A DNA stretch of 64,000 nt, from assembly GCA_050693875.1 (NCBI GenBank), contig JBOGWP010000159.1:6003-70002 (forward strand), in the 5' to 3' direction. The translations under genes were made by a program, and so were the position numbers. Under the pieces are notes generated by a model that was given only the letters and a program-made list of their open reading frames with translations, made no database searches and was not told where the DNA came from. The DNA is from Actinomycetota bacterium. GTDB lineage: Bacteria; Actinomycetota; CADDZG01; JAHWKV01; JBOGWP01. Below, piece by piece: positions 29,194-64,000 of this stretch (positions are counted from its first letter, which is position 1; each line of letters begins with the position of its first letter).

Positions 29194-29291
29194 CCGCGCA
29201 ATCGAGGGCGCCCGCGCCGTTCGCGGCGCGGGCACTGCGGGCTGGGCTGCGTGCGGCCCGCGCGAAGCCACCAGCCGACGTCCGCAGCCGG

Positions 29292-31439: not shown

Positions 31440-31506
31440 TCATCCTTTTTCGACTCACAGCCGGGTGGCCTTGACCGGTCCGGGGGGTCTGGGGGCCTGA
31501 TCCGGG

Positions 31507-32667: not shown

Positions 32668-32770
32668 CGGGAAGGGACACTACCAACCGGGAAAGCGGCG
32701 ATAGCGAACACGGGCCGGCTCCTCCACTATTCTCGCGACCGAATTCGGTCGGCACATACGGGAGGATTCG

Positions 32771-33864
32771 TGACAGGCGGGCTGCGACTCCTCGTCTTCC
32801 TGGCCGGGGCCGTGGTCGTCGCGGCAACCTTCGGGTCGTCGCTTCGGACCGTGATGCTGCCACGCGGTATTCCTTCGCGGCTCACGCGCTCCGTCTTCAT
32901 CACGGTCCGCCAGCTGTTCCGGCTGCGTGCGGGACCCGGGGCGACGTTCGAGAAGCGCGACCGGGTGATGGCGGTATATGCACCGTTCAGCCTGCTCGTG
33001 CTGCTCTCGGTCTGGCTCGCCCTGGTGCTGGCGGGATACACGGCAATGTTCCTCGGGGCGGCCCCGCGTAGTCTCCGTGAGGCCTTCCTGCTGTCGGGCT
33101 CGTCGCTGCTGACCCTCGGCTTCACCCGGCCGGCCGACCTCCCGTCGTCCCTGCTCGCCTTCTCCGAGGCGGGCCTTGGGCTCGCGCTCTTCGCGCTCCT
33201 GATCACGTTCCTGCCCACCATCTATGCCGCCTTCTCCCGGCGGGAGGCCGCGGTGAATGCGCTCGAGGTCCGGGCCGGCTCGCCGCCGTCGGGGGTCGAG
33301 ATGATTCTTCGCTTCTCCCGTCTCGGCCGGGTCCAGCTGCTCACCGAGGAGGTATGGGTGCGGTGGGAAGACTGGTTCGGCGACGTCGAGGAGTCGCACA
33401 CCTCGTTCCCGGCCCTCGTCTTCTTCCGGTCGCCCCAACCCGACCACTCCTGGATCACGGCTGCCGGGGCGGTGCTCGACGCCGCCTCGCTGATGGCGTC
33501 GGTCGTCGCGACCGAGCGCGACGTGCAGGCCGAGCTCACCGTGCGAGCCGGCTACATCGCCCTGCGCCGGATCTGCGACGTGTTTCGCATCCCCTACGAC
33601 CCGGAGCCGCGCAGCGGCGACCCGATCGGCCTGGACCGCAGCGAGTTCGACGAGGCATGCGCTCGCCTGGCTGCCGGCGGAGTGCCGCTTCGGCCCGATC
33701 TCGACCGGGCGTGGAGGGACTTCCGGGGATGGAGGGTCAACTACGACCAGGTCTTGATCGCGCTCGCCGGGCTGACCATGGCGCCCTACGCGCCGTGGTC
33801 CTCCGACCGGTCGTTGCGCCGGTACAAGTCGCTCCTGACCGGTTCACAGCGAGGAGGAGCGTAG
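32771..33864 (+). CDS. hypothetical membrane protein
   Basis: GTG start with a GGGAGG RBS. About four N-terminal TM helices followed by a soluble domain with no recognisable motif. Confidence 0.45.
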
Positions 33865-33868
33865 CCGC

Positions 33869-34981
33869 TCACGGTGTGAAGGAGACCGTGGCACCGGCGA
33901 GAAGGGCGAGGACGGCCATCAGCGAGGCACTGGCCGCCAGCAGTCCGGCGAAGGCCGAGCCGCGGACCGCCCGGGCGGTGGCGATGAGCAGGGGGAAGGC
34001 GATCACGAAGGTCCGCGGGGTGAGGTGGTGGCCCCGAGAGATGATCACGGGGATGGCGATCGCAAGGGTGTAGATCACCAGCACGACCGGCGGCCGCCAG
34101 CGGGTCAGCAGCACCATCGCCGCGATCAGGGCCACGAAGGTGAGGCCGGAGGCGAGGAGGTTGAAGTCGTCGAGGGGCCCTCGGGCGACGTGGACGACGT
34201 TGGTGACCGCCGACCAGCCGAAGTCGACCCCCTGCGCCCACCCGCGCGCCTGGGCATGCGGCCATGCCAGGGGATCACCGGTCCGTTCGAACAGGTAGGT
34301 GAAGAACGCGAGCGCACCGAGGGGTGCGAGCAGTGGCGCCGTCAAGGCACGAAGCCCTCGCCCTGCGCGCAGCGCCACGACGGCGGCCCAGAGGCAGCAG
34401 GCCACCAGGAACATCCCGTTCGGGCGCACCGCGCCGGCCAGGGCGGCGGTCACGCCGGCGACCACCCACCGCTCCCGCAGCAGGGCGTGCAGGCAGAGGA
34501 TGGCAAGCAGGAGGAACAGCCCGTCGGCGTAGACCATCGACAGCGCCTGGGCGCCCGGGAAGAACGACCACAGGGCGACGGAACGGGTGGCGAGGGACCG
34601 GTCGCTCAGACGCTGCACGAGGAACCATAGGGCTACGGCGGCGACCGTCGATGCGATGGTCGAGACGACGACGCCCGCGGTGATGGAGTAGACGCCCCGA
34701 TCCATGAGGCCGCGGACGAGCAGCGGATACCCCGGGAGGAACGCAAGGGTGCTCTGCGCGGGGTTTCCCACGCCCACCGGGACCGCGTGGGGATAGCCGC
34801 GCTCGGCGAGCCGCAGGTACCAGGCGCCGTCCCACCGGCCGAGCACGTCGATCAGGCTGTCCTCGGGCCCCACGAGGACAGCCGCGTAGGCGGCGGCGAG
34901 CACGGCGAGGCGCGAGGCGAGGAAGATCCCCAGCGGGATCGCGGCGCGCGTCGCAATGTCCTGCAGGCGGGACCGCCACAT
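33869..34981 (-). CDS. PIG-V-like GT-C mannosyltransferase, paralogue 3
   Basis: LGRWDGAWYLRLAERGYP ... AFLPGYPLL. Start at the internal Met MWRSRLQDIA; the first 129 aa of the ORF in the track are an out-of-frame shadow of the neighbouring repeat region. Confidence 0.6.
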   Translation of the reverse strand: MWRSRLQDIATRAAIPLGIFLASRLAVLAAAYAAVLVGPEDSLIDVLGRWDGAWYLRLAERGYPHAVPVGVGNPAQSTLAFLPGYPLLVRGLMDRGVYSITAGVVVSTIASTVAAVALWFLVQRLSDRSLATRSVALWSFFPGAQALSMVYADGLFLLLAILCLHALLRERWVVAGVTAALAGAVRPNGMFLVACCLWAAVVALRAGRGLRALTAPLLAPLGALAFFTYLFERTGDPLAWPHAQARGWAQGVDFGWSAVTNVVHVARGPLDDFNLLASGLTFVALIAAMVLLTRWRPPVVLVIYTLAIAIPVIISRGHHLTPRTFVIAFPLLIATARAVRGSAFAGLLAASASLMAVLALLAGATVSFTP

Positions 34982-35057
34982 GGCGGCACGATTATCGAGC
35001 GTGGTCGGCGCGGGCGGCGGCAGGATGCCGGAGGCCGGGGCGGTGGGGCGGTGCCGG

Positions 35058-36791
35058 CTACCGGGCGATGCCGACGATCGGCTTGTTGAGCCGGATGCCC
35101 CCCGTCGAGCCGAAGAATCCGGCATCTCCGAAGGAGAAGACGCCGCCGTCCGAGGCGACGAGCCAGTAGCCCGACCCGGTCGAGGTCCCGGCCATTCCGA
35201 CAATCGGCTGGTTGAGCTTGATGCCGCCGGTGGATCCGTGGAACGCGGCATCGCCGAAAGCGAAGATCCCCCCGTCGGAGGCGACGAGCCAGTAGCCCCT
35301 GCCGGTCGGCGTCGCGGCCATCCCCACGATCGGCTGGTTGAGGCGCATCCCGCCCGTCGAGCCGGCAAAGCCCGCGTCGCCGAAGGCGAAGATCCCGCCG
35401 TCGGATGCCACCATCCAGTAACCGCGGCCCGATGGGGTCGTCTCGATGCCCACGATGGGACGGTTCAGCCGAAGGCCCCCGGTGGAACCGAAGAACCCGG
35501 CGTTGCCGAACGAGAACACGCCGCCGTCCGAGGCGACCATCAGGTAGCCGTCGGGGGCAAAGACCTGGAACCAGTCCGACCGCAGCCCCAGCTTCGACCG
35601 GACGTCGCTGCCCGTCACGACCACGCTTCCCGCCGTACCGACCAGCCGCATTCGGGTGACGCGCCCCCCGAGGTCACCGAGCCCATTGCGCTCGAGCACC
35701 TCGAGCCCGATGAGATGACCAATCTCCGGCCACGCCGCATCGACGGCGGGGACCGCAACCGACGTCCGCCACTGGTGGTTCGGGTTCTGGGAAACGTCGT
35801 CGCCGTCGTCGGGGACCGCCGGAAAGACCCCGCCGGCAGTCCAGCCCCCCGTCGACGAGGAGTACTCGGCCCGGGCCACACCCCCGTTGCGGAACCGCAC
35901 CTGGCCGGCAGTCTCGGAAACCGCGGAGTCGGTGGACGGCTGCTCGACGTCGCGGTAACCGCCCGGACCCTGCTCGGCGCGGCCCAGGTACACCTGGCAG
36001 GCGGTGGAGTCGCACGTCCGGCCGAACGATTGCACCTGGGACATCGCGTAGGAGCGTGCCGCCACGGCCTGCGCGCGGAGCGCATGCATGCCCATCCCGC
36101 CGCCGAGGCCTCCCCACGACGACGGTGACTCCGCGGGTACAACGCCGCGCAGATACGCCTCGAGCGGCAGCTCGTTGACGGTGCGTTGGAGGGCGTCCTC
36201 CTCGAAGCTGCGCAGGCTTCCTCGCAGCCAGCGAGTCGTTCCACCCGGCTCACACACCTGGAGCATCTCCTCACGTTCGCCCGTCGGATTCGTGGGCTCG
36301 ACCACGACCGGGCCGATCGCGCCGCCGTTGATGAGCGTCCACGGACCCCCGCACCCGCCGCCCGAGAACACCTGGAACAGGTTTGGCCCGATCCGGTGCA
36401 CCAGCAGGCCGGAGTGCTGTCCGGGGCCGCTCGGGGTCTGCATGTGGCCGCGCTCCTGCGCGACGACGAGGTCGGCGTTCTCGAATCGTGTGAGACGGAC
36501 GGCGATGACGCCGTCACCGACCGCGCCCGGCGATGTTCCCCCGTAAAAGTGCCCAAGGATGCTCCCGTAGTCCCAGCGCTCGTCGACGGCGTAGCCGAGC
36601 GCGCCGTACTGGCCCATGCCACGGCCGTGACCCCAGCCGTGCCCCTCGAGCTCGACGGTGGGGGCGGGGTAGGCGAGGACGGGCGCCCCCGGCAACGCGG
36701 TGACGCCCAACGCAATCAGCGCTGCGGCGACGAGCGTGACGAAACGGAAGCCCCTGGGACGAGACGCGCCGAGGCGAGGGTTCGAGGTCAT
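35058..36791 (-). CDS. secreted SpoIID/LytB-domain protein with four C-terminal GYW/DGGVF repeats
   Basis: Start MTSNPRLG with a signal peptide. SpoIID/LytB signatures ([26 protein letters not shown]) and four repeats. Confidence 0.8.
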
Positions 36792-36874: not shown

Positions 36875-37840
36875 GTGGGGGTCGAGCAGCAGGACCGGCG
36901 GGCCAGAACCGTGCGCAAGGCACGTCAGCTCCTCGCGCGCGGGATCCGCCGCTCCCCGCGACTGCGCTTGATGGCGGAGCGGGCGGTTTCGGAGCTGGAG
37001 CGGGCCCTCGTCGCCGAGGATCTCTACAGCTCCCGGTACTTCGGCACCGGAGTTCACCCCACCGACCGCGGAAAGAGTGTCTCCGGCTACGCCGAGTACC
37101 GGCGCGAGACGTCGAACCTGAACGTGGCGGCCTACATCGTCTACAAGCATCTGCGCCCCGCCCGCGTCGTCGATATCGGGGCGGCGCGGGGGTATCTGCT
37201 CGAGGCGCTCTCGGAGGTCGGCGTCGAGGGTCATGGGGTCGACCTCAGCCATGACGCGATCGCGTCCGCCTCCGACGAGGTCCGGGGCCGGATGACCGTC
37301 GCCTCGGCGGTGCGCCTGCCGGTCGTAACTGGGGCCGCCCCCGTTGTCACGGCGTTCGAGACGCTCGAGCACCTGCCGCCGCACGACGTGTCCCGGGCAC
37401 TGGCCGAGCTGGCCCGGGCCACGAGTGCGTTCGTCGTGGCGACCATCCCCTCATTCGGTCGGAACGACTACGGGCCGAACGGATGGTACGGGGGCAAGGT
37501 CCTCTGGGAGGTCCTACATGCGTACGAGGCCCTCGGCCCAGACTACGAGGGGCCGATCCCCTATCACGACCTGATGCGCGACGGGGAGAACAACCCGATC
37601 GAGGGACATTTGACCATCGCATCCTTCTCGTGGTGGACCAAGCGCTTCGCCGAAGCCGGCCTGGTGCGGTTCGGCAAGCTCGAGGAGGCGATGAACGCCG
37701 ACCTCGGCCGGTTCGGGCTCCTCGGGCAGCAGATCTGGCACCTTTACGTGGCGGGCAAGCCCGAGGCGGAGATCCCGCAGGGGGCGTCCTACGAGGAGGC
37801 CCTGCGGGCTGAGGAAGTCCTCGACCTCGGCCGGGGGTGA
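36875..37840 (+). CDS. class I SAM-dependent methyltransferase
   Basis: Motif [16 protein letters not shown] and [15 protein letters not shown] start. Confidence 0.65.
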
Positions 37841-39867: not shown

Positions 39868-42078
39868 TCACGTTCCTGCGGCGGTCATCGTCACGATGGG
39901 CTGGTTGAGCTTGATCCCACCGGTCGATCCAAGGAAGGGGGCGTTGAAGGCGAAGATCCCGCCGTCCGAGGCCACCAGCCAGTATCCATCAGTCGAGGGG
40001 ACACCCAGCTCCGCACCGACACCCCGGCCCGACGGGACGGCGGCCATGTCCACGATCGGACGGTTGAGCTTGATCCCACCGGTCGACCCGTGGAATTCGG
40101 CATCTCCGAAGGCGAAGATCCCGCCGTCCGAGGCGCACAGCAGGTACCCGTTGCCGCTTCGGGACCGTGCCATTCCCACGATGGACTGGTTGAGCCTCAT
40201 CCCACCGGTCGAGCCGTGGAAGGCGGCGTCTCCGAACGCGAACATCCCGCCGTCCGCCGCGGCGAGCCAGTAGCCGTCACCCGAGGGCGTGGATGCCATC
40301 GCCACGATGGGCTGGTTGAGCTTCATCCCACCGGTCGAGCCATGGAAGGCGGCGTCTCCGAACGCGAACATCCCGCCGTCGGCCGCGGCGAGCCAGTAGC
40401 CGTTGCCAGAGGGAGTCCGCGCCATTCCCACGATGGGCTGGTTGAGATGGATCCCGCCGGTGGAGCCGTGGAAGCCGGCATCCCCGAACGCGAACATCCC
40501 GCCGTCGGCCGCGGCGAGCCAATACCCCCTTCCGGAGCGTGTGGCCGCCATGGCCACGATCGGCTGGTTGAGCCGGATCCCGCCGGTGGAACCCTGGAAG
40601 GCCACGTCGCAGAAGGCGAAGATGCCTCCGTCCGAGGCGGCCAGCCAATACCCACCCTGCCCGTGCACGGGACAGGGGTCGGAGGTGAGCGACGACTCGG
40701 TCCACGAGCCGGTACGGCGGGCGTCGCGGCGGAACATCGGCCAGCCGAGGTTGCCCAGATTCCCGCCGTCGAGCTCGAAGCGGTAGGCGACGCCTTTGCC
40801 GCCCTTCGTGCCGGCGAGCAGCACGTCGAGCCTCCCGTCGCCGTCGACGTCGGTCACGAGTGGCGAGTTCTGGAAGCCGACCTGGCCCTCGAGGAGCGCG
40901 AACATCTGGGCTCCCGTGTCTCCGTCGAACGCCCAGACCCCCGCTCCGCTCGGCACGAGCAGATCCTGGCCCCCGTCGCCGTCGATGTCGGCAGTGGTGA
41001 TCGAGCCGAGCACCACACCACCTCCGGAGCTGTGGTGCCACAGCTCGCGTCCGTCGCCCTTCCACACCCAGACCTGCCCGGGGTTGGCTCCCGACCAGGT
41101 GCCCTCGATGACCTCGAGCCGGCTGTCGCCGTCGACGTCGGCCAGGGTCGGAGATGCCTTCGTGTAGGCCCCGGTCTCCCGCGACCACTTCAGCTGCCCG
41201 GAGCTGCTGAGGACGAAGAGCCTCGTCGAGTCGGAGCGCTTGTAGAAGTCACCCGTTCCGAAGACGACCTCCGGACTGCCGTCCCCATCGATGTCGCCGA
41301 CCGCGGGTGAGCCCTGCACGATCTCGTTCGTCCGGAACTCCCACAGCACCTGACCGCCGCCCGTCATCGCTCGGACGAACCCGCCCGACCAGTCCACCGG
41401 CGGGCCGGACATGGAATCGGCCCCGATGATGAAGTCGGTGCGCCCGTCGCCGTTGACGTCGGTGAGGGCGGCGGAGGAGAAGACCGTGTCGTCGGAGTAG
41501 AAGGGGAACCCGGCGTTGGTCACCCCACTTTGCGAGATCGACCAGATGCTCTGCAGCCCCAGAGAGCCAAAGGTCGCGTCGGCCTGCCCGTCGCCGTTCA
41601 CGTCGCCGAGCGCAGGCGTCGAGTAGATGGAGGGATTGGCGAAGTCGTTGTCGCGGGCGACGAACCGGAACCGCTGCCCCCCGTCGTGGTCGAACGAGTA
41701 GAGGGCACCGCCCGTCGTCTCCGCCGTCCCGCTGCCGATGAAGATTTCCGGCCGGCCGTCACCGTCGGTGTCGGCGGTGGAGGGTGAGGAGGAGATCCCG
41801 TTGGAGGTTCCGCGGGGCCAGCCTCCGACATCGGATCCATCGCCGGCGTGCAGGGCCCAAACCTGGCCGTCTCGGGCCCCGAACACCACGTCCGGGCCGC
41901 CTCCGTCGAGGTCGGCAATCACGGGCGACGACTCCTGAACCGGCCCCCCCAGGGTGCGCTCCCAGACGAGGCGGGGCGCGGCCTCCGCTGGGCCCGCGAG
42001 CGGAACGACGGCGGCGGAGACGAGCAGGGCGACCGACAGCACGCGCCCGAGTCGGCGCGCCGCAGGCGTCGAATTCAT
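39868..42078 (-). CDS. secreted FG-GAP/integrin-alpha-like beta-propeller protein with six C-terminal GYW/DGGVF repeats
   Basis: Signal peptide. Seven DxDGDGxxD FG-GAP calcium-binding blades (for example DLDGGGPDVVFG, TDGDGRPEIFIG, VNGDGRTDFIIG), then the repeat module. Confidence 0.8.
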   Translation of the reverse strand: MNSTPAARRLGRVLSVALLVSAAVVPLAGPAEAAPRLVWERTLGGPVQESSPVIADLDGGGPDVVFGARDGQVWALHAGDGSDVGGWPRGTSNGISSSPSTADTDGDGRPEIFIGSGTAETTGGALYSFDHDGGQRFRFVARDNDFANPSIYSTPALGDVNGDGQADATFGSLGLQSIWSISQSGVTNAGFPFYSDDTVFSSAALTDVNGDGRTDFIIGADSMSGPPVDWSGGFVRAMTGGGQVLWEFRTNEIVQGSPAVGDIDGDGSPEVVFGTGDFYKRSDSTRLFVLSSSGQLKWSRETGAYTKASPTLADVDGDSRLEVIEGTWSGANPGQVWVWKGDGRELWHHSSGGGVVLGSITTADIDGDGGQDLLVPSGAGVWAFDGDTGAQMFALLEGQVGFQNSPLVTDVDGDGRLDVLLAGTKGGKGVAYRFELDGGNLGNLGWPMFRRDARRTGSWTESSLTSDPCPVHGQGGYWLAASDGGIFAFCDVAFQGSTGGIRLNQPIVAMAATRSGRGYWLAAADGGMFAFGDAGFHGSTGGIHLNQPIVGMARTPSGNGYWLAAADGGMFAFGDAAFHGSTGGMKLNQPIVAMASTPSGDGYWLAAADGGMFAFGDAAFHGSTGGMRLNQSIVGMARSRSGNGYLLCASDGGIFAFGDAEFHGSTGGIKLNRPIVDMAAVPSGRGVGAELGVPSTDGYWLVASDGGIFAFNAPFLGSTGGIKLNQPIVTMTAAGT

Positions 42079-42288: not shown

Positions 42289-43215
42289 TTGGGGACGACG
42301 GGGGACGAGACCGGGCGGCTGCAGGCCGGGCCGAGGAGGCGGCTCCTCGAGCGGCCTCCGTTCAGCCTCCTCCGCGACCTCTCTCTCCGCGGCTACATCA
42401 TCGGCGCCTATCGCAATCTCCTCTTGCGGGATCCGGATCCTGCGGGGCTGGACCACTACCGCCGGCTGCTGACCTCGGGTGAGCTGACCCGGGAGGCCTT
42501 CCTCGAGACCATTCGGGGCTCGGAGGAGTTCCGCTTCCGCGTCCGGTTCACGGACCTCCTCAACTCCCTGCATCTGAGCCGGTGCGATTTCGTCCGCGGC
42601 CTTCCCCGGGCGCGTCAGATCCTCGACATCGGGGGGACCCACCAGTCCAACGTCGAGGGGGCCTTTGTCGGGCTGGGCTACCCCTACCCCTTCGAGCGCC
42701 TCGTCATCGTCGACCTGCCGCTCGAGGCCCGCCACGAGCTCTACGCCGGAAGCCGGGCGGTCGATCGGGTGGACACTCCACTCGGGCCGGTCTGGTACCG
42801 CTATCACTCCATGACCGACCTCTCTGCATTCGAGGATGGCGATTTCGACCTCGTGTATTGCGGCCAGACCATCGAGCACGTGGCCGAGGAGGACGCCGAC
42901 CTCACGCTCAAGGAGGTGTTCCGGGTGCTGCGGCCCGGCGGATGGCTGGGCCTCGACACCCCGAACGGCCGAGTCTGCCGGATGCAGCAGGACGAGCTCA
43001 TCAACCCGGACCACCGGGTGGAGTACACCCATCCACAGGTTGTCGCAAAGCTCGAGCGGGCCGGCTTTGAGATCCTCGAAGCGAAGGGGTTGAACTACGC
43101 CGGGGCAGCGGCGCACGGGGGGCCGTTCTCGACGAAGGAGGTCGCCGCCAACCAGGGGGTCTACTGGGAGATCGAGGATTGCTACCTGCTTGCCTACGTC
43201 TGCCGCAGGCCATGA
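42289..43215 (+). CDS. DUF4214 domain + class I SAM-dependent methyltransferase
   Basis: N-terminal DUF4214-type motif (IIGAYRNLLLRDPDPAGLDHYRRLLTSGELTREAFLETIRGSEEF). Methyltransferase motif I ILDIGG and LVYCGQTIEHV. Confidence 0.7.
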   Translation: MGTTGDETGRLQAGPRRRLLERPPFSLLRDLSLRGYIIGAYRNLLLRDPDPAGLDHYRRLLTSGELTREAFLETIRGSEEFRFRVRFTDLLNSLHLSRCDFVRGLPRARQILDIGGTHQSNVEGAFVGLGYPYPFERLVIVDLPLEARHELYAGSRAVDRVDTPLGPVWYRYHSMTDLSAFEDGDFDLVYCGQTIEHVAEEDADLTLKEVFRVLRPGGWLGLDTPNGRVCRMQQDELINPDHRVEYTHPQVVAKLERAGFEILEAKGLNYAGAAAHGGPFSTKEVAANQGVYWEIEDCYLLAYVCRRP

Positions 43216-50565: not shown

Positions 50566-51165
50566 GTGCGCGCGGCGGTGTTCCTGGATCGCGACGGGGT
50601 CCTGAACGCGGTGCGCATCGAGGGCGGGATCGCGGGGCCGCCCCGAGACCTAGACGAGCTCCAGATTCCTGAAGACGCTCATGCCTGCCTGGAGCGATTG
50701 AAGAAGGCCGGATACGTGCTCCTGGTCGTGAGCAATCAGCCCGACGTGGCGCGCGGAGACGTCGATCCCGCCGCGGTGTCGCGCATCAACGCCCGGCTGC
50801 GGGAGCGGCTCCCCATCGACGCCGTCTATGTCTGCGTCCATGACAACGCCGACGGGTGCGCGTGCAGGAAGCCCCGACCCGGGATGATTCACTCCGCCGC
50901 CCGCGACTGGCAGGTCGACCTCGGACGCAGCTGGCTCATTGGCGATCGCTGGACCGACATCGCCGCCGCGGATGCGGCCGGCGTCGACGGGATCCTCATC
51001 GAGTCCGCCCACAGCTGGCGGCCGACGAGCATTGGGGGGCCGCCCCCGGGACTTCGGCCGCGCTTCACCGGATCGTCTCTGCGCGACTGCATCGACTTCA
51101 TCTTCGAGGCGCCCGACTGCGGCTCGCCTCGGGCGCCGGCCCTCGGCGGTTCGCCGCGTCCATGA
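50566..51165 (+). CDS. gmhB: D-glycero-D-manno-heptose 1,7-bisphosphate phosphatase (HAD-IIIA)
   Basis: VFLDRDGVLN (the DxDGT/V motif), VVSNQP, and a Cys cluster CVHDNADGCACRKP typical of GmhB. GTG start. Confidence 0.7.
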   Translation: MRAAVFLDRDGVLNAVRIEGGIAGPPRDLDELQIPEDAHACLERLKKAGYVLLVVSNQPDVARGDVDPAAVSRINARLRERLPIDAVYVCVHDNADGCACRKPRPGMIHSAARDWQVDLGRSWLIGDRWTDIAAADAAGVDGILIESAHSWRPTSIGGPPPGLRPRFTGSSLRDCIDFIFEAPDCGSPRAPALGGSPRP

Positions 51166-55117: not shown

Positions 55118-56101
55118 GTGGCCATCGGGGTGGCGGTGATCGGGTGCGGGCTCATCGGGAACAAGCGCATTGCCGCGCTTCCGCAGGGGACGCGGCTCGT
55201 GAGCGTAACGGACCTCGACCGCTCCCGCGCCGAGAAAGCCGCCGCCCTGGTGCCCTACGAGGTGCAGGTCGCCGATTCCGCGGAAGAGGCGGTTGCGGCC
55301 GACGGCGCCGACCTCGCCGTCGTGGCGGTGGTCCACGCCGACCTCGCCGCCGCCACGCTTGTGGCGCTCGAGGCGGGGTGCCACGTGCTCGTGGAGAAGC
55401 CCGGGGGCCGTGCGCTCGAGGATCTGGAGGTCATCCAGGAAGGAGCGGCCCGCTCGCGGCGCCGGGTGCGGGTGGGCTTCAATCATCGCTTCCATCCCGG
55501 AGTGCTCAAGGCTCGGGAGCTGCTTCGTGGAGACGATGCGGGGGAGTTGATCTACGTTCGAGCGAGATACGGGCACGGCGGCAGGCCAGGCTATGAGTCG
55601 GAGTGGAGGAGCAACAGGGAGGTCTCGGGAGGAGGGGAGCTGCTCGACCAGGGAATGCACCTGATCGATCTCACCCGCTTTCTGATCGGCGACGTCGACC
55701 TGGCCTTCGTCGAGCTCCGAACCGACTTCTGGAAGACCTTGGTGGAGGACAACGCCTACCTTGCCCTCCGTCCCCGCGCCGGAGGTTTCGCCTGGCTGCA
55801 CACCTCGTGGACCGAATGGAAGAACATCTTCTCGCTCGAGATCGCTCACGCGCGGAGAAAGATCGAGATGTTCGGGCTGGGGGGGAGCTACGGGACCGAA
55901 CGCCTGACCTGCTACCAGATGCTTCCCGAGATGGGACCTCCCGCGACCACCGCCTGGGAGTGGCCGCAGCCAGACCGGTCATGGGCCCGCGAGCTGGAGG
56001 ATTTCATCTCGACGCTTCGGGACGGGACCGAGGGGATCGGGGCGGAGCCAGCGGACGCGGCCGCGGCGTTCGCCATCGTCGAGGAGGCCTACGAGACATG
56101 A
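55118..56101 (+). CDS. Gfo/Idh/MocA-family NAD(P)-dependent oxidoreductase
   Basis: VAVIGCGLIGNKR and the EKP motif (HVLVEKP). Confidence 0.8.
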   Translation: MAIGVAVIGCGLIGNKRIAALPQGTRLVSVTDLDRSRAEKAAALVPYEVQVADSAEEAVAADGADLAVVAVVHADLAAATLVALEAGCHVLVEKPGGRALEDLEVIQEGAARSRRRVRVGFNHRFHPGVLKARELLRGDDAGELIYVRARYGHGGRPGYESEWRSNREVSGGGELLDQGMHLIDLTRFLIGDVDLAFVELRTDFWKTLVEDNAYLALRPRAGGFAWLHTSWTEWKNIFSLEIAHARRKIEMFGLGGSYGTERLTCYQMLPEMGPPATTAWEWPQPDRSWARELEDFISTLRDGTEGIGAEPADAAAAFAIVEEAYET

Positions 56102-57078
56102 TCATCGCGAGGACGCCGCTCCGCATCTCGCTCGGCGGTGGGGGGACGGACCTTCCCTCCTACTACCGGTCGGCAGGTGACGGATTTCTCGTTGCCGCCG
56201 CGATCACCAAGTACATCTACATCGCGATCAACCAGAACTTCGACGACGACATCCTGCTCAAGTACTCGGCGATCGAGCGCGTGAAGGAGGTGGACGACGT
56301 CCGGCACCCGCTGTTTCGAGAGGCCCTCCGGCTGACGCGCACGCGAAACAGGGTGGAGATCTCGTCGATGGCCGACATTCCGGCAAATACCGGGTTGGGC
56401 TCGTCGGGCAGCTTCACCGTCGGCCTGCTCAAGGCTCTCCATGCCTACCAGCACTCGGTCGTCTCGAATGCGCAGCTCGCGGAGCAGGCGTGTCACATAG
56501 AGATCGACAGGCTCGGAGAGCCGGTCGGCAAGCAGGACCAGTTCATCGCGGCGATGGGAGGCGTCACCGCATTCGAGTTCCGAGAGGACGACTCGGTCGA
56601 GATCTCGCCGGTGCCGATGGCGCAGTCCACGCGGGACCGGCTCGAGGAGAACCTTCACCTCTTCTACACCGGGATGACGCGCTCGGCCGGATACATCCTC
56701 GCCGATCAGGACCAGAAGTCGAAGGCAAGCGACGCCGGAACCAAGGACAACCTCGACCAGGTGAAGCGCATCGGGCGTGAGAGCTTCGACGCGCTCCGGG
56801 ACGGCAACCTCAAGTGGTTCTCTGCCCTGATGTCCGAACAGTGGGAGCTCAAGAGGGCGCGCTCGCCGAGTGCGACCAACCGCCAGATCGACGAGTGGAT
56901 CCGAACGGGTCTGGAAGCAGGAGCCGAGGGCGGGAAGCTGGTCGGTGCAGGTGGGGGCGGATTCCTCCTCTTCTACTCGGAGCACAAGGCGGACCTTCGT
57001 GAAGCGATGTCCGCCCTCGGGCTCCCGGAGGTGCGGTTCCGCTTCGACTACGAGGGAACGAAGCTGGTGGTGAGCTGA
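56098..57078 (+). CDS. hddA: GHMP kinase, D-glycero-alpha-D-manno-heptose 7-phosphate kinase-like
   Basis: ATG overlaps the upstream stop (ATGA). MIIARTPLRISLGGGGTDLPSYY has the HddA N-terminus, and the GHMP motif PANTGLGSSGS is present. Confidence 0.7.
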   Translation: MIIARTPLRISLGGGGTDLPSYYRSAGDGFLVAAAITKYIYIAINQNFDDDILLKYSAIERVKEVDDVRHPLFREALRLTRTRNRVEISSMADIPANTGLGSSGSFTVGLLKALHAYQHSVVSNAQLAEQACHIEIDRLGEPVGKQDQFIAAMGGVTAFEFREDDSVEISPVPMAQSTRDRLEENLHLFYTGMTRSAGYILADQDQKSKASDAGTKDNLDQVKRIGRESFDALRDGNLKWFSALMSEQWELKRARSPSATNRQIDEWIRTGLEAGAEGGKLVGAGGGGFLLFYSEHKADLREAMSALGLPEVRFRFDYEGTKLVVS

Positions 57079-57080
57079 GC

Positions 57081-57785
57081 TTGTACCCCGTTGCCGTGCT
57101 CGCCGGGGGGGTGGGAAGCAGAATCGCGCCGATCAACGACAGCGACCTCCCCAAGGTGCTCCTTCCCGTTGCCGGTCGGCCCTTCATCGACTACAAGCTG
57201 ACCACCCTGGCTGCGGCGGGGGTCGACCGCGTCGTACTGCTGGTGGGCCACCGGTCGGAGCTCGTCGAGCGCCACGTCGGAACGGGAAGTCGCTACTCCC
57301 TTTCCGTGACCTACGCGTTCGACGGCCCGCAGCTTCTCGGCACGGGCGGCGCGCTGCGACGGGCCCTGACCCAGCTCGGCGAGATCTTCTGGGTGACCTA
57401 TGGAGATACCTTGCTGACGGTGCCGATGAAGGAGGTCGAGGAGAGCTACCGGGCGAGCGGATTGAGAGCGCTCATGACCGTCCTCCACAACCGCGATCGC
57501 TGGGACCGGAGCAACGTCGCCGTCGCCGACGGGATGGTCGTTGAGTACCGGAAGGGGAGCGCGCTCGGCACGTTCGAACACATCGACTACGGGATGAGCA
57601 TCTTGCCGATCGCCGCCTTCGAGGCCTTTCCGCCCGATCGGGCCTTCGATCTGGAGGAGGTCCTCTCGGGTCTCGTCGCGGCGCGAGAGCTCGCTGCATT
57701 CGAGGTCCAGGAGCGCTTCTACGAGATCGGGACGCCGGAGAGCTACGCGGAGACCGTTGCGTTCTTCTCGACCACCATGCGCTAG
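57081..57785 (+). CDS. hddC: sugar-1-phosphate nucleotidyltransferase (D-glycero-alpha-D-manno-heptose 1-phosphate guanylyltransferase-like)
   Basis: AVLAGGVGSRIAP...LLPVAGRPFIDY is the nucleotidyltransferase fold. Directly follows hddA. TTG start. Confidence 0.65.
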   Translation: MYPVAVLAGGVGSRIAPINDSDLPKVLLPVAGRPFIDYKLTTLAAAGVDRVVLLVGHRSELVERHVGTGSRYSLSVTYAFDGPQLLGTGGALRRALTQLGEIFWVTYGDTLLTVPMKEVEESYRASGLRALMTVLHNRDRWDRSNVAVADGMVVEYRKGSALGTFEHIDYGMSILPIAAFEAFPPDRAFDLEEVLSGLVAARELAAFEVQERFYEIGTPESYAETVAFFSTTMR

Positions 57786-57805: not shown

Positions 57806-60694
57806 GTGGTGAGAGAGGACGAGGCGTCGCCGCCGCCAATCGAAGCGCCTGGCCGGACAGCACGGCGTGCCCGAGGAGGCCGCCTCGGGCTGGTGTTGGC
57901 TCTCGCCGTGGTCACGTTGCCGTTCTTCCAAGTGGCGTTTGAGGGGAAGACCTTCAGCGCCGACGGCTTCGTCCCCGGCGTCAACGGCTTCGATCCCGTT
58001 CCCGGCACCCCCAAGGTCCCGCTGGAACAGCGCTGGATCGACCCGGGGGCATCCGCTTGGCAATTCGAGCCGTGGGCCGAAGTCGTTGGGAGGATGCTCC
58101 ACCAGGGTGATGTGCCGCTCTGGAACCCGTGGCAGGCGCTGGGGACGCCGCTCGCCGCCGCAATGCAGCCTGGGGTCTTTGACCCTCTCCTCGCACCGGT
58201 TCGGATCTGGCCTTCGCAGCTCGCTTGGGACCTCTCGCTCATCGCCAGCATCCTGCTCGGCGCAGCCGCGGCGTACGGGTACGCCCGCCTCCTCGGCCTT
58301 TCGTGGCCGGCATGTCTGACCGCGGCCGCCGGCTTCCTCCTCTCCGGCTTCTTCTTGACCTACACGAACAACCACTTCTTCCGGTCGTACCTCTATCTTC
58401 CAGTTCTGCTGTCCGCGGTCGAGCTGCTTCTTCGGTCTCGTCGTGCGATGCCCGTTGCCCTGCTCGCGCTGGCCGTCGCGGGAAACCTTGTCGTGGGGAT
58501 GCCGGAGGCATCGTTCTTCGTCCTCTCGGCGACCGGCGCCTACGCGTTGTTTCGGATTCTCGTCGGACCCCTCGAGAGCAGCCGATGGAACGTCGTTCTG
58601 CGGATCACCGGAGGGGTCATCATGGGGGTCGCCCTGGCCTCCCCGCTCCTGTTCGCCTTCCTCGAATTCGTGACCCGCTCCTTCAACATCCATGCGGCAG
58701 AGCGCCCCGGCGTCAGGATCGACTCGCCATGGACGCCCCTCGTTTGGGCTCTTCCGCACGTCCAGGATGTCGTGAGGAACTGGAACGGAGTCGCTGTCTT
58801 CGCGCTGGCAGTGGTGGCAGTCTTCTCGATCGGGCGGAACCGGCGTCGTGTCGCATGGTTCTTCCTCGCCCTCGTCGGACTACTGACGCTGAAGATCGTC
58901 GGAAGCCCACTCGTGCAGTGGATCGGCCGCCTGCCGCTCGCGGAACTCGTGATCTTCCCGGTCTTCGCCCTACCCGTCGTGTCCTTCGGGTTGGTCATGC
59001 TGGCGGCGATCGGTGTGCAGGCAGTGATCGATGGCGCGACGAACCGACGACCCTGGCTCCACGCTTCGGCAGTTGCACTGCTGCTCGCCTCCGTGCTGGC
59101 GCTCGCCGCAGTGGCCGCTCCGGCCGGCAAGCGTCGCGGTGAACCCGCGGTCCCGATCCGGGCGGCACTACCCGCTGTTGCCGGTTCTTCGCTGGTGATT
59201 GCTGGGCTGCTGGTCCGGCGGGGGCGCGCCGGGGGGCTTCTGGTCGCCTCGGGCGTGATCGTGGAGCTCCTCCTCCTGGCGCCCAGGGGAGGATACCTCG
59301 ACCGCTACGACCCCTACCATCCTCCCGCGTGGCTCGAGCGGCTTCGACAGGATGCCGCCATCCACCCCAATGGGCGGATGTATGGGTACGACGGGAAGCT
59401 GTACCCGAACACGGCCGGGGTGTTCGGCTTGTACGACATCCGTTCGCTCGACGCCCTCTACGTCGACCGCTACATGGCCTACATGCGGGCGTTCGTCGAG
59501 CCCGAGGTTCGCGACCGATTCACCGGGGTCCCCGCGGACCAATGGACGCCGCCGCATGTTCGTGACAACCCGATGTTCGACCTCCTCGGTGTCCGCTACC
59601 TCGTCACGAGCGGGACAAGGCCGTGGAGTCGTGTGATCGAGGAGATCTTCGAACGGCGCGAATCCAACCCCGCGTTCCGCCCCGCCGTCTTCGACATCCG
59701 TGGGGACCGCAGGCACGTGCTGTTCCTGCACAGCACCCAGGAGGTGGCCTATCCGGTGGAGACGATGCAGCTTGCTCGAGTCCGGTTCGGTTATGCGGTC
59801 GATCCCTCGGCGTGGAGCGACCCGACCGCGGACGGCGTCGCCCTGTCCTTGAGTGCGGTAGGCGGAGACGGAAAGAGGCGCCAGGTCTGGGAGGGTGAGT
59901 ACGTGCCGCGCAGCGACCCCGTCCTCCCGGAATGGCGAGAGGCGGAGATCGACCTCTCGAGGCTTTCCGGGCCGATCACCTCGCTCGTTTTCAGGACCGA
60001 CGCGAGAGGCAACGGCGCCCACGACTGGGCCGGCTGGGCCGAGATCCAGCTGCTCGACGCGGGGGGGAAGCCGATCTCTGATGACGGGCTGCGAGAGGTC
60101 GCGCGGTTTCACGACGCTGCCGTCTTCGGCTGGGATCGGGCCTTGCCGAGGGCGTTCCTCGTCGGGCGCGTGCAGCCTGCTCGAGACCTCGATGATGCCC
60201 TCGAGCTGTTCCGCGCCCGGGGAAGGCGCTTCCCCGACGGTTGGGTGCAGGTGACGGAGTTCGATCCCCGGCGCGAGGCGGTGGTCGAGCGTTCACGGGA
60301 GCTGCCCGCGGCGCTCGTGACTGGACAGGGCGGAGGGGATCCGCCGGGAACCGCCCGCATCCTCGCTTATTCGAGCAACCGGGTCGTGATCGAGACCGAC
60401 GCTGCCAGGCCGGGACTCTTGGTGCTCACGGACACCTACTACCCGGGCTGGGTGGCATCGGTGAAGGGCCGCGAGGCGCCGGTCGTTCCTACCAACGTGC
60501 TGTTCCGAGGCGTTCCGGTGCCCGCCGGCCGCTCGCTGGTCGTGTTGAAGTACCAGCCTGGACCCTTCCGAGTCGGGACGGTTCTGGCCACCATCTCTCT
60601 GCTGGCACTTCTCGCGTTCGTGCTCGGAGACATGGTGGTCCATCGGCGGCAGACGTCCCTGGACCGCGTGCCATACGCGGGTAGGCGCGGCTGA
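57806..60694 (+). CDS. large polytopic membrane protein, YfhO-like GT-C glycosyltransferase candidate
   Basis: About 960 aa. At least 12 TM helices in the N-terminal half, a large extracytoplasmic C-terminal domain, and a terminal TM helix (VGTVLATISLLALLAFVLG). This is the YfhO family architecture. Confidence 0.45.
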   Translation: MVREDEASPPPIEAPGRTARRARGGRLGLVLALAVVTLPFFQVAFEGKTFSADGFVPGVNGFDPVPGTPKVPLEQRWIDPGASAWQFEPWAEVVGRMLHQGDVPLWNPWQALGTPLAAAMQPGVFDPLLAPVRIWPSQLAWDLSLIASILLGAAAAYGYARLLGLSWPACLTAAAGFLLSGFFLTYTNNHFFRSYLYLPVLLSAVELLLRSRRAMPVALLALAVAGNLVVGMPEASFFVLSATGAYALFRILVGPLESSRWNVVLRITGGVIMGVALASPLLFAFLEFVTRSFNIHAAERPGVRIDSPWTPLVWALPHVQDVVRNWNGVAVFALAVVAVFSIGRNRRRVAWFFLALVGLLTLKIVGSPLVQWIGRLPLAELVIFPVFALPVVSFGLVMLAAIGVQAVIDGATNRRPWLHASAVALLLASVLALAAVAAPAGKRRGEPAVPIRAALPAVAGSSLVIAGLLVRRGRAGGLLVASGVIVELLLLAPRGGYLDRYDPYHPPAWLERLRQDAAIHPNGRMYGYDGKLYPNTAGVFGLYDIRSLDALYVDRYMAYMRAFVEPEVRDRFTGVPADQWTPPHVRDNPMFDLLGVRYLVTSGTRPWSRVIEEIFERRESNPAFRPAVFDIRGDRRHVLFLHSTQEVAYPVETMQLARVRFGYAVDPSAWSDPTADGVALSLSAVGGDGKRRQVWEGEYVPRSDPVLPEWREAEIDLSRLSGPITSLVFRTDARGNGAHDWAGWAEIQLLDAGGKPISDDGLREVARFHDAAVFGWDRALPRAFLVGRVQPARDLDDALELFRARGRRFPDGWVQVTEFDPRREAVVERSRELPAALVTGQGGGDPPGTARILAYSSNRVVIETDAARPGLLVLTDTYYPGWVASVKGREAPVVPTNVLFRGVPVPAGRSLVVLKYQPGPFRVGTVLATISLLALLAFVLGDMVVHRRQTSLDRVPYAGRRG

Positions 60695-60764: not shown

Positions 60765-61601
60765 TCAGCGTGCTGATCGCTTGCGTTCGACCCCGCTGGT
60801 CGCTCGCTCTCGAGGTCGGCGCGGCCGGCGCAAAGGCTGATCCGGAGGCCGCAGGGGGCTGACCCGAAAGCGAACCAGGGCGACGACCCAGGTGAGCGGA
60901 TCCCGAACGAACCGCACCTTCTTCCCCCGGTCGTATCCGCGGGAGACGTATGTGATCGGGACCTCAATGGGCTGAAAGCCGAGGCGGACGAGCTTCCCTA
61001 CGAGCTCCCAGTCGAAGTCGAATCGATCGGCGACAAACTCGACGTCGGCGATGCACTTCGTCCGAAACACCTTGTACATGGTGAAGGGGTCGCGGAGGCG
61101 AGTTCCGTAGACCACGTTGAACAGCCAGGTGAAGACCCAGTGCGCCGCGTTCATGACGCGGCTCACCAGCCTCACGTCCCCGAACTCCCGCATGGCCTTG
61201 CCCGGCGCGTGGCGGCAGCCGAGCACGAAATCCCCCTGACCGGAGAGGATCGGCTCGAGCACGACCGGATAATCTTCGATGCGGTACTCGAGGTCTGCGT
61301 CCTGGATCAGCACGATGTCGCCCGAGGCGTGCTGGAGACCCTCACGGACGGCGTTTCCCTTCCCCCGAGGCCGATCCTGCTCGATGAGCTTCACCCGGCC
61401 ATCTGAGGCGTAACGCCTGCAGATTTCTCGCGTGCCGTCGGCCGATCCGCTCTCGACGACGATCAGCTCGATGTCGACGCCGGTGATCGACTGGGCCAGG
61501 ACCTGCTCGATCACGGTCCCGACGGTTGCTGCCTCGTTATAGGCGGCCATGACCACCGACAGGGTCGTGCGGCCCGGGCCTCCCCCCAGATCGGCGCTCA
61601 C
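60765..61601 (-). CDS. glycosyltransferase family 2 (DPM1/polyprenol-phosphate glycosyltransferase-like)
   Basis: LSVVMAAYNEAATV...ELIVVESGSADGT...IQDADLEY. GTG start overlaps the gmhA stop (GTGA). The 550-aa ORF in the track is an N-terminal shadow across gmhA. Confidence 0.75.
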   Translation of the reverse strand: MSADLGGGPGRTTLSVVMAAYNEAATVGTVIEQVLAQSITGVDIELIVVESGSADGTREICRRYASDGRVKLIEQDRPRGKGNAVREGLQHASGDIVLIQDADLEYRIEDYPVVLEPILSGQGDFVLGCRHAPGKAMREFGDVRLVSRVMNAAHWVFTWLFNVVYGTRLRDPFTMYKVFRTKCIADVEFVADRFDFDWELVGKLVRLGFQPIEVPITYVSRGYDRGKKVRFVRDPLTWVVALVRFRVSPLRPPDQPLRRPRRPRERATSGVERKRSAR

Positions 61602-62233
61602 CGGGTAGGGGCCTGGGCGACTCTGGCTGCGTCCAGCGACTCCCACCGCGGCGCCGACCGAAGGAGGTCGGGATGAGTCACCAGTAGGTGCCAGAAGACC
61701 GCCTGCATCCCCTCGGTGTGGGCGGTGACGTTCGCAGGGTTTACCGTCGGGACGAGGATGCAGGCATCGGCGGCGGCGCGAAGGTATCCTCCATCCCTCC
61801 CGACGATCCCGGTGACCGAGGCGCCTGCCTCCTTCGCGGTCCGGATTGCTTTGACGAGGTTCATGCTCACCCCGCGCTCCGCGTCGCCACCGCCGACCGA
61901 GAACACGAAGAGACAGTCGCCGGACCGGATGCGGGACCCGATGAGCCAATTCGAGTAGGCGACCTCCCATCCCTCGTCGTTCACCCGGGCGGTGAGCTCG
62001 GCGACATTGTCGTTCGGGCAGTACGCCTCGAAGCCGGCCAGCTTCCGGAAGTCGCAGGTCGCGTGGGAGGCGTGCGCCGCTCCTCCGCCCGACCCACAGA
62101 GAAAGAGCCGCCCGCCGCGATCGCGTGTGCTCCGCAGGACGCGCACGACCTCCTCCACGTCGGACGGCGGAGCAATGCCGAGTATTGAGGCGGACTCGGC
62201 CAGGAATGCCTCGGTGAAAGAGGGCCGCTGCAC
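61598..62233 (-). CDS. gmhA: D-sedoheptulose 7-phosphate isomerase (SIS domain)
   Basis: SIS fold with RLFLCGSGGGAAHASHATCD and CLFVFSVGGGDAERGVSMNLVKA. Confidence 0.75.
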   Translation of the reverse strand: MQRPSFTEAFLAESASILGIAPPSDVEEVVRVLRSTRDRGGRLFLCGSGGGAAHASHATCDFRKLAGFEAYCPNDNVAELTARVNDEGWEVAYSNWLIGSRIRSGDCLFVFSVGGGDAERGVSMNLVKAIRTAKEAGASVTGIVGRDGGYLRAAADACILVPTVNPANVTAHTEGMQAVFWHLLVTHPDLLRSAPRWESLDAARVAQAPTR

Positions 62234-62447
62234 GCGTTGGCATTCTATGTGACGAAGCGGCCGCCGGTCGGGACCCCTCTCTCGTTCCCATCATGCCGGC
62301 CGGGGGCGTCCCTGATCCGGATATGCTATGCAGCCATCCTGAGCAGCCTCCGAGAGGTGCCGAGGAGATCCCCACTCGTGGATCCACATCAGCTGCCCCA
62401 GCACGACTCACTGCCATCGGAGAGCCAACTCCCTCACGATGGGGAGC

Positions 62448-64000
62448 GAATGGTCCCCGACCTCGACCGGGAGGGCCTGATCTACGTCGAGCACGTCGTC
62501 CGGTACCGTTTCGCCGCCCAGCTCGTCGAGGGCAAACGCGTTCTCGACGTGGCGTGCGGCGCGGGGTATGGGTGCGCCACGCTTTCGAACGCGGGTGCCG
62601 CGGAGGTCGTCGGTGTCGACCGTGCGGCGGCTGCGGTGGAATACGCGCACCGCCGCTACGGGGGGATGGGGCGTCGCTTCCTTGCTTGCAACGCCACCCA
62701 GATGCCGTTCGCAGCGGGCTCGTTCGACGTCGTGATCTCGTTCGAGACCCTGGAGCACCTGGGCGAGCAGGCGCGCTTCGTGGACGAGGTGCGACGGGTT
62801 CTGGGAGACGACGGCCTCTTCGTGTTGTCGACTCCGAACCGGCTCCGGTATCCGAAGGGCAACCCGTTTCATGTCCACGAGCTGGACGACGTCGAGTTCG
62901 AGGCCTTTCTGCGGGGACGGTTTCGGCACGTCGAGCTCCTGGCCCAGGACAATTGGACCGCGGGGGCGATCCTCCGCCCCTCGACCAAGGTGGACGATGG
63001 CGACGGCCCCAGGCCGCGGGTCACGGTCGACGGGGGGGTCAGCGAGGAGCCCCTGGGCCCCCTCTACCTGCTCGCGATTTGCTCGGACGGGCCTCTTCCC
63101 GAGCCCCTCGAGCGCGTGATGCTCGCGCGGATCCCGCCCCAAGAGCTGTTGATGTACCTCGCTCGAGACGACGAGCTACGCGCGGTCCGGAGCCAGCGCG
63201 ACGAGTGGGAGTCTCAGGCGCGCGCCCTGGAGCGCGACCGTGACCGATGGGCGACGGAAGCCGCAGCTCTCGGGGAGGACCGGGACGGGTGGGCCGCTGA
63301 GGCGGCCGCCGTCCGGGAGAACCGGGACGGGCTGGCGGGAGACGTGGCCTGGCTCAAGGCAGAGCTTCTGGGCGCGAACATCCGGTTGGAATCCGCCGAG
63401 CGGCTCGCCCAGCGCCGGCAGGTTGCACTCGCCGCGCTGGAGTCCGAAGCCGTCGGCCTGCACGGCGACATCAGGCTTCTCGGGGAGGAGCTTGCAGCGC
63501 TGCGAGGGGCGCGTACGTTCGCGCTGGCCGCGCGCATCGGACGCGCGGCGGGCAGCCTGCTCCCCCCCGGGTCTTCCCAGCGCCGCATGTTGGCGGCCGC
63601 CCGGGCAACGGTGCGCGAACTGGCCGAGACGGGCCGACGCCTCCGCAACGGGTGGCGGACGCCATCCGAGCAGGCGCCGCCCCCCATCGATCAGCAGCGA
63701 GGGTACTCGGAGTGGCGCCAGCTGTACGATGCCACTCCCGACGAGCTGCGGGCTCAACGGGAGACGGCGCTTCGCGCTTCGAATGTCGTCGCCTTCATCT
63801 GCCTCATCGGCGGCGCAGAGGCCACGCCCGAAGGCCAGGCCACCCTGGCGAGCCTTCGTGCGCAGACCTGGCCTTTCTGGTCGTTCGTGTTCGCCTGGGA
63901 GTTCCCGGGTGGACCCGGCGCGGTCGACCCTGAGAAGGTCCGCCAATCGGTCGAGGATTCGGGGCAGGACTTTGTCCTCTTCCTTCGCGCCGGCGACCGG
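62448..64000 (+). CDS. class I SAM-dependent methyltransferase + long coiled-coil protein, 3'-partial
   Basis: Found by direct translation; it is missing from the ORF track because no stop occurs before the window end. Motif I VLDVACGAGYGCATL and VVISFETLEHL, then about 200 aa of heptad-like Arg/Glu/Ala-rich sequence (ERDRDRWATEAAALGEDRDGWAAEAAAVRENRDGLAGDVAWLKAELLGANIRLESAERLAQ). Confidence 0.65.

Follow-up and report, generated by a model that had tools for sequence, protein, structure and literature searches.

The 64,000-nucleotide stretch of actinobacterial DNA analysed here (hereafter the window; contig JBOGWP010000159.1, positions 6,003 to 70,002) ends inside a plus-strand gene, the target of this work, that joins a methyltransferase, a heptad-repeat helix and three glycosyltransferase-type domains in one polypeptide. 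An exhaustive HMMER search recovered a full-length product, P0012 (1373 residues), that is 100% identical to the fragment encoded in the window. Window residues 1-516 correspond to P0012 residues 25-540, such that a window residue number equals the P0012 number minus 24. The portion of the gene present in the window carries the following features, for which the sources of evidence, including AlphaFold2 (AF2) models, are given in parentheses.

62378..64000, plus strand: 5′ part of the target gene (P0012 identity, gene table of locus L003, cluster members, TGER motif)
62450..63140, plus strand: class I S-adenosylmethionine (SAM)-dependent methyltransferase, a putative capping module; window residues ~1-230, P0012 ~25-250 (Pfam, AF2, Foldseek)
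63137..63517, plus strand: heptad-repeat helix, a candidate coiled-coil spacer or ruler; window residues ~230-356, P0012 254-375 (heptad register, periodicity, AF2)
63494..63690, plus strand: basic amphipathic segment and linker, a possible membrane-association site; segment at window residues 349-372, linker to ~415, P0012 373-396 (charge, hydrophobic moment, relatives)
63695..64000, plus strand: first third of domain 1, a degenerate glycosyltransferase family 2 (GT2) domain of the GT-A type; P0012 ~440-692 (BLASTP/phmmer, alignment, AF2)

The gene for P0012 lies on NCBI contig CDGWAG010000155.1 (assembly GCA_975100735.1, locus L003). The window and this contig differ at a single position (window 54523) in 11,623 overlapping nucleotides, and they therefore represent one population captured in different assemblies. 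By this comparison the gene stops at a window-equivalent position of ~66499, and the window holds only its 5′ 40%. The initial annotation had named a stop codon or frameshift shortly after position 64000 as fatal to its proposal, and neither is present. Rather, 833 codons lie past the window end and encode the three glycosyltransferase-type domains, with no further coil. Cluster mates of P0012 carry the record name ‘MAG: methyltransferase domain-containing protein [Actinomycetota bacterium]’.

The initial annotation described an uninterrupted plus-strand frame running from 62448 to the window end. The coding frame is real, but translation starting exactly at 62448 meets five stops. The open frame is in the phase of the ATG at 62450 (‘MVPDLDREGL...’), two nucleotides away, and extends from ~62189, just past an upstream stop at ~62186, to the end of the window. 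Its guanine-plus-cytosine (GC) fractions at codon positions 1, 2 and 3 (0.77/0.50/0.85) match the coding signature expected at 70% GC. The opposing minus-strand open reading frame (ORF), 62408-63142, looks by the same measure (0.85/0.45/0.76) like an antisense shadow, as had been proposed. Also as proposed, the target frame is missing from the ORF list for want of a stop codon before the window ends. Gene callers differ on the start codon, with GTG 62378 yielding 1373 residues and ATG 62450 yielding 1349 (NCBI record MGH2706027.1, on a 72.6-kb contig). Because a ‘TGER’ motif that is conserved in the family sits upstream of ATG 62450, GTG 62378 is judged from sequence to be the more likely start.

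The class I methyltransferase fold reported previously is well supported, in that Pfam (Methyltransf_11, window residues 32-126, E 1.5e-21), AF2 and Foldseek agree. In alignment, every family-invariant residue is retained (D57, G61, G65, E123, E126, H127, S151, P153, H165 and E168), and the predicted local distance difference test (pLDDT) score exceeds 90 across the domain. WbdD structures are present in the PDB. Among the matches listed, however, the PDB sequence, profile and Foldseek matches of this domain are to generic SAM-methyltransferases only, and WbdD is not found among the phmmer PDB matches (E<=0.01), the best 60 profile matches or the best 50 Foldseek matches. Pfam detects no kinase domain in P0012. 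Indeed, the methyltransferase ends at ~250 and the coil starts at 254, such that a kinase would not fit between them.

About 200 residues of heptad-like repeats had been claimed to follow the methyltransferase. A heptad helix is present, but it comprises ~110-120 residues, or ~16 heptads in an unbroken register, and is succeeded by a ~65-residue basic, Ala-rich linker (AF2 confidence low at 371-392 and 415-432) and then by a GT2-like region that starts at window residue ~416. We evaluated the helix by Fourier analysis of heptad periodicity relative to shuffled sequences, by register occupancy, and by AF2 secondary structure. The periodicity (z = 6.3) is reached by none of 1000 shuffles, and hydrophobic residues occupy 94% of heptad column 1 and 69% of column 5, compared with 19-47% of the other columns. 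AF2 places helices at P0012 254-297 and 302-375 with pLDDT values of 70-89. Significant heptad periodicity also occurs at the equivalent position, directly after the methyltransferase, in 26 of 41 relatives. We rejected the view that this Ala/Arg/Glu-rich segment is mere high-GC low complexity, as its hydrophobic residues are register-specific and relatives of other composition share the periodicity.

The first half of the coil (63200-63340, plus strand) is built of 14-residue repeats in which Trp and Leu alternate at one core position and Arg and Ala at the other: WESQARALERDRDR / WATEAAALGEDRDG / WAAEAAAVRENRDG. No DNA-level tandem repeat underlies them according to Tandem Repeats Finder, and the duplication is therefore either old or convergent. 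With a predicted terminating-type enzyme at one end of an extended heptad helix, as judged from the sequence and the AF2 model, the target has the arrangement that distinguishes the coiled-coil terminator/ruler class.

Immediately after the coil, the basic segment has a net charge of +3 to +4 and a hydrophobic moment of 0.43-0.51. Short relatives of the protein (P0001-P0006) end in similar basic tails of the ‘S..WR...PLR’ type, and the alignment consensus at this point is ‘SxxWRL’. The segment is possibly a membrane-association site equivalent to the basic tail of these short methyltransferase-coil proteins.

Three glycosyltransferase-type domains make up the remainder of the protein. BLASTP and phmmer comparisons show domain 1 to be a homologue of GT2 domains in relatives (P0104, 6e-19; P0055, 3e-15; P0021, 4e-10), and AF2 models it as a beta/alpha fold with pLDDT ~90. 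Alignment reveals, however, that its characteristic motifs have changed (PVYN to LIGG, DDxS to WEFPG, DHDD to RAGD and QDYD to CLWE) and that ~28 residues are deleted, with structural motifs such as FRPDWSPELLLS retained. Neither the C-terminal 101 residues encoded in the window nor the full-length protein yields a Pfam GT2 match here, and the GT2 nature of the last ~100 window residues was recognized only via homologues and AF2. Domain 1 is classed as degenerate and GT2-like because its acidic nucleotide-sugar-binding motifs are replaced and this Pfam match is lacking. These substitutions suggest that it most likely lacks catalytic activity and serves as a scaffold or to bind the acceptor.

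Domain 2 (P0012 ~690-940) is an intact GT2 domain, with PF00535 scoring 49.2 bits against a cut-off of 23.3 (Pfam GT2 at 693-814) and with VDNGD and LNDDTE present. Domain 3 is a WsaF-like GT-B domain, for which Pfam gives 49.2 bits for WsaF_N and 75.5 bits for WsaF_C (cut-off 27). Moreover, P0012 1018-1330 aligns with residues 49-379 of WsaF itself (PDB 2x0d/2x0e, E 2e-17). Based on both Pfam models and this match to a protein of known structure, domain 3 is assigned to the WsaF family of GT4-type GT-B enzymes.

The initial annotation likened the methyltransferase and coil to WbdD-type proteins that terminate glycan chains and measure their length. Architecture, literature and the genomic context of relatives support the idea of a coil-borne methyltransferase that ends and measures chains in a pathway dependent on an ATP-binding cassette (ABC) transporter, but not the proposal of a stand-alone WbdD type, given that polymerase modules are fused to the target. 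Under such a proposal, the C-terminus of the long coil would recruit a separate polymerase, as in WbdD of E. coli O8/O9a (K. pneumoniae O5/O3). WbdD has a capping methyltransferase and a coiled-coil ruler, binds the membrane through an amphipathic helix at its C-terminus, and recruits WbdA, the polymerase, without being fused to it. The target does present its methyltransferase, coil and basic amphipathic segment in that order. This WbdD layout is shared by the short relatives P0001-P0005 and P0013, many relatives of 300-450 residues extend no further than the coil and basic tail, and in Cellulomonas the methyltransferase is a separate gene beside Wzt and Wzm. However, ~950 residues follow the coil of the target, including the GT2-like, GT2 and WsaF-like domains, and the kinase that O9a WbdD also possesses has no room in the target. 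Because the protein carries its own polymerase modules after the coil, lacks a kinase and does not find WbdD among its listed matches, we conclude that it is not a stand-alone WbdD. We regard that explanation as highly improbable, and the full-length sequence essentially excludes it for this gene.

Better analogues are K. pneumoniae O7 ORF6, K. pneumoniae O12 WbbB, and Geobacillus WsaE plus WsaF (PMC11231755, PMC2943079). A 2024 Journal of Biological Chemistry report on K. pneumoniae O4/O7 describes ORF6-O7 as an N-terminal methyltransferase, a kinase and a carbohydrate-binding module (CBM)-like domain, a coiled coil in the centre and, at the C-terminus, two GT2 modules (PMC11231755). According to the same report, a coiled coil is a characteristic marker of the strategy that depends on an ABC transporter, and the coils of WbdD and WbbB are established as molecular rulers. 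Going by this published description, the target resembles ORF6 in its N-terminal methyltransferase, central coil, C-terminal glycosyltransferases that include GT2, placement in a glycan locus, and size (1373 residues versus 1414). ORF6 orthologues exist with or without C-terminal glycosyltransferase modules (PMC11231755), and the family of the target likewise includes both fused members and members that end after the coil. Unlike the target, ORF6 interposes its kinase and CBM-like domain between methyltransferase and coil, and the group that it adds is a methyl-phosphate. In the target the coil directly follows the methyltransferase, and a plain methyl cap is therefore expected. The two proteins also differ in their glycosyltransferase modules (two GT2 domains in ORF6 versus a degenerate GT2, an intact GT2 and a WsaF-like GT-B in the target) and in origin, with ORF6 belonging to a Gram-negative O antigen and the target to Actinomycetota.

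WbbB of K. pneumoniae O12 and Raoultella likewise presents an N-terminal terminator, a coiled-coil ruler and C-terminal polymerizing glycosyltransferases (PMC11231755), but its terminator is a beta-Kdo (3-deoxy-D-manno-oct-2-ulosonic acid) glycosyltransferase and its glycosyltransferases belong to other families. WsaE of Geobacillus stearothermophilus carries an N-terminal 2-O-methyltransferase that caps the rhamnan, followed by two rhamnosyltransferase domains, and works with WsaF (PMC2943079). On the basis of this description, the target is like WsaE in linking an N-terminal O-methyltransferase to glycosyltransferase domains in one polypeptide, and its host is, like Geobacillus, without lipopolysaccharide. 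Unlike the WsaE/WsaF pair, the target fuses the WsaF-like module into the same polypeptide, has one degenerate GT2, and includes a long heptad spacer of a kind that is not described for WsaE in PMC2943079. The donor sugars probably also differ, in that genes for GDP-heptose and GDP-6-deoxyhexose are present at the target locus and the scanned ORFs include none of the RmlC type. Finally, wzm, wzt and wsaE overlap in the Geobacillus gene cluster (PMC2943079), and this contiguity is not seen at the target locus. The most fitting description of the target is that of a WsaE-plus-WsaF-type fusion bearing an ORF6/WbbB-type coil, and it is a new member of the known class of fused terminator-ruler-polymerase proteins.

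The family is large. A HMMER library search yields ~44,000 cluster representatives at E<=0.001, a count that includes methyltransferase-only matches, and 1,154 at E<=1e-30. Most members are annotated simply as ‘methyltransferase domain-containing protein’. The family takes two forms, namely short methyltransferase-coil-basic-tail proteins of 300-450 residues and fused proteins of 900-1400 residues. Among the fused proteins are methyltransferase-coil-GT2-GT4 (P0014, P0015, P0036, P0046 and P0050) and methyltransferase-coil-GT2-GT2 (P0021) architectures, and P0180 combines methyltransferase, GT2 and WsaF-like domains.

Adjacent Wzm and Wzt genes accompany three of five fused homologues. A convergent Wzt and Wzm directly follow the gene for P0014 in two metagenomes, and Wzm and Wzt (with Wzt_C) lie directly upstream for P0046 and P0050. 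No Wzm/Wzt occurs in the limited flanking sequence examined for P0036. Among 80 loci from species-representative genomes, a Wzt-like gene and a Wzm-like gene are both found no more than 10 kb away in 45, usually in the order wzm-wzt-methyltransferase. In actinobacterial relatives the pair is often downstream and convergent (L015, L048, L052 and L058). Specifically, Cellulomonas sp. Root930 (L052, 11354-15723) encodes a stand-alone 307-residue methyltransferase followed by convergent Wzt (with Wzt_C) and Wzm genes. An apparent ‘full-length’ match at this locus was rejected because it consisted of joined pieces, with the methyltransferase as a separate 307-residue gene. This cultivable species, with its split version of the system, might serve as an experimental model.

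Genes related to glycans abound in the window, and the target belongs to a glycan locus. Genes around it include the following.

61598..62233, minus strand: SIS-domain GmhA-like sedoheptulose-7-phosphate isomerase of 211 residues, divergent from the target (SIS_2, E 2e-8; best NCBIfam name GmhA, below cut-off)
60765..61601, minus strand: GT2 glycosyltransferase of 278 residues, downstream of the SIS gene (Pfam GT2, E 4.5e-30; gene tables of L003 and L007)
57806-60694, plus strand: YfhO-like membrane protein of 933-962 residues, directly upstream in the locus of the target
57081-57785, plus strand: HddC/MurU-like nucleotidyltransferase (best NCBIfam name, below equivalog cut-off)
~56098-57078, plus strand: HddA-like GHMP kinase (best NCBIfam name, below equivalog cut-off)
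50566-51165, plus strand: GmhB-like HAD phosphatase (best NCBIfam name, below equivalog cut-off)
42289-43215, plus strand: DUF4214-plus-methyltransferase protein
36875-37840, plus strand, and 22897-23604, minus strand: small methyltransferases
25988-27223, 31507-32667 and 33869-35368, minus strand: three GT-C-like membrane glycosyltransferases (two PIG-V/Mannosyl_trans2-like, one PMT_2-like)

The SIS gene and the target are separated by ~145-215 nucleotides of intergenic DNA, in which scans for promoter and terminator consensus sequences found no match; the same divergent pair recurs in L011. A listed 550-residue ORF (60765-62417, minus strand) was rejected as a single gene since it merges the GT2 and SIS genes, which are in different frames. 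The 278-residue GT2 is a candidate adaptor or side-chain transferase of the target locus. From their sequences, the GmhA-, HddA-, GmhB- and HddC-like proteins probably constitute a GDP-glycero-manno-heptose pathway, although this assignment is not proven. Two proteins, P0169 and P0170, have a GT2 region that resembles that of the target fused to GT9 heptosyltransferase domains, an arrangement that fits with the heptose-nucleotide genes beside the target gene. The locus also includes genes for a UDP-sugar dehydrogenase, an SDR protein, an epimerase/dehydratase, a GFO oxidoreductase and two further GT2 proteins, as well as a pyruvyltransferase-like gene, Gmd-like and reductase-like genes, and several GT-C-like proteins.

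Given this architecture and the analogous systems, we consider it probable that the target is a cytoplasmic fused terminator-ruler-polymerase that polymerizes a repeat glycan and methyl-caps those chains that span the coil, after which ABC export follows. We infer the termination, ruler and export steps by analogy. The intact GT2 and the WsaF-like module, positioned near the membrane, would alternate in extending a lipid-linked repeat-unit glycan, possibly with a disaccharide repeat. The sugars would probably be supplied by the GDP-heptose and GDP-6-deoxyhexose genes of the locus, such that the glycan may contain heptose. The methyltransferase would be held at the far end of the coil, which could reach ~18 nm if fully extended (estimated from ~0.15 nm per helical residue), and would O-methylate the sugar at the non-reducing terminus as soon as a growing chain extended that far. 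If the methyl cap halts elongation at the reach of the coil, then the coil would set the modal chain length. The cap would also tag the chain as cargo of a Wzm/Wzt ABC transporter, which the available sequence does not reveal. The degenerate GT2 would act as a scaffold or acceptor binder rather than as a catalyst.

Several observations weigh against this reading. The AF2 model is of a monomer, its confidence for the helix is moderate with one break at 298-301, and Arg/Ala takes up one of the core heptad positions through the first half of the coil. Every sugar-nucleotide gene assignment falls below the NCBIfam equivalog cut-off. Furthermore, the nearby ABC transporter that the initial annotation had suggested looking for does not appear in the window. 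Pfam finds ABC_tran or ABC2_membrane in none of the scanned window ORFs, Walker-A and LSGGQ motifs occur in no frame of the 64-kb window, and phmmer searches with three Wzt and three Wzm seeds give no match in the window (62 kb upstream of the target). P0015 is encoded at a locus (L011) that is syntenic with the window and shares with it the HAD, GHMP kinase, nucleotidyltransferase, GT2 and SIS genes. The 8 kb upstream of the P0015 gene likewise contain no transporter, and the gene next to it on the downstream side encodes a Methyltransf_24. The neighbour, a convergent gene of 254 residues, had been entertained as a Wzt and was rejected on this basis. Lastly, sequence past the target gene is absent in all three assemblies, the ends of which are:

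Locus L003, 14123-14214: assembly ends 92 nucleotides after the target stop
Locus L007, 6616-6647: assembly ends 32 nucleotides after the target stop
Window: ends inside the gene

The breaking of two independent assemblies within ~90 nucleotides of the stop suggests that a repeat or strain-variable region lies directly downstream, where a transporter might be located.

The weak core heptad position, together with the lack of a visible cap-reading Wzt_C within the window, could be read as signs of a polymerase whose methyltransferase decorates internal or side-chain sugars and does not terminate chains. The helix would then serve to dimerize the protein or to space its domains, and chain length would be set otherwise. 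The locus contains at least four other methyltransferase genes (including 22897-23604, 36875-37840 and 42289-43215), a point in favour of this reading. However, there is tight linkage between the methyltransferase family and Wzm/Wzt, in many cases with Wzt_C, and the heptad spacer is kept across relatives of very different composition. We therefore view a purely decorating methyltransferase as unlikely, albeit the most serious competitor to the terminator-ruler-polymerase.

Absence of an ABC transporter from 62 kb raises a further explanation, in which the same enzyme operates in a pathway without one. Here the glycan would be assembled on a lipid carrier, flipped by another exporter, and acted on outside the cell by GT-C/YfhO-type proteins. 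GT-C-like membrane proteins are numerous at the locus (YfhO-like, PMT_2 and two PIG-V-like), and ~35 of the 80 relative loci have no Wzt in their flanks, with P0015 and P0036 having none in the sequence examined. On the other hand, the assemblies stop at the gene, actinobacterial relatives often carry the transporter downstream and convergent, and many of the transporter-negative loci are short contigs. Moreover, a YfhO gene co-occurs with Wzm/Wzt near the gene for relative P0046, where an SLH-domain protein is also encoded (L008), and neither Wzx nor Wzy turned up among the scanned window ORFs. A pathway of this sort is in our estimation rather improbable. A bolder version, in which the five-module enzyme measures and caps a heptose-containing cell-envelope glycan without a dedicated Wzm/Wzt and passes the product to another route (e.g. 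YfhO/GT-C), is a long shot. If true, it would separate the strategy of a coiled-coil ruler from ABC transporters, of which that strategy has been considered a hallmark.

The arrangement of a terminator on a coiled-coil ruler fused to a polymerase was elucidated with the O antigens of Klebsiella and E. coli and the S-layer glycans of Geobacillus, and the terminator-ruler-polymerase reading extends it to an actinobacterium that is uncultured and high in GC. The target protein leaves current concepts unchanged. Its distinctive features are minor, and comprise the fused WsaF-like module, the degenerate GT2, the actinobacterial host, the neighbouring heptose genes, and the lack of a transporter in 62 kb. 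Regardless, the WsaF-like module, degenerate GT2 and heptose-nucleotide genes yield testable predictions regarding a methyl-capped, possibly heptose-containing polymer. The gene also offers a lesson for annotation, in that an edge-truncated ‘methyltransferase’ may be the tip of a 1373-residue assembly enzyme.

Farther from the target, the window includes other notable genes. An amidase and a SpoIID-like protein are encoded in one cluster with the GT-C-like genes at 25988-35368. DUF5979, DUF7601 and SpaA-type domains occur in a surface-protein-like ORF at 20899-22872 (plus strand), and an FG-GAP repeat protein is encoded at 39868-42078 (minus strand). A 614-residue protein encoded at 27349-29193 (plus strand) contains two Cu/Zn superoxide dismutase stretches (Sod_Cu, E 2e-61) and is unusually large for a bacterial SodC.

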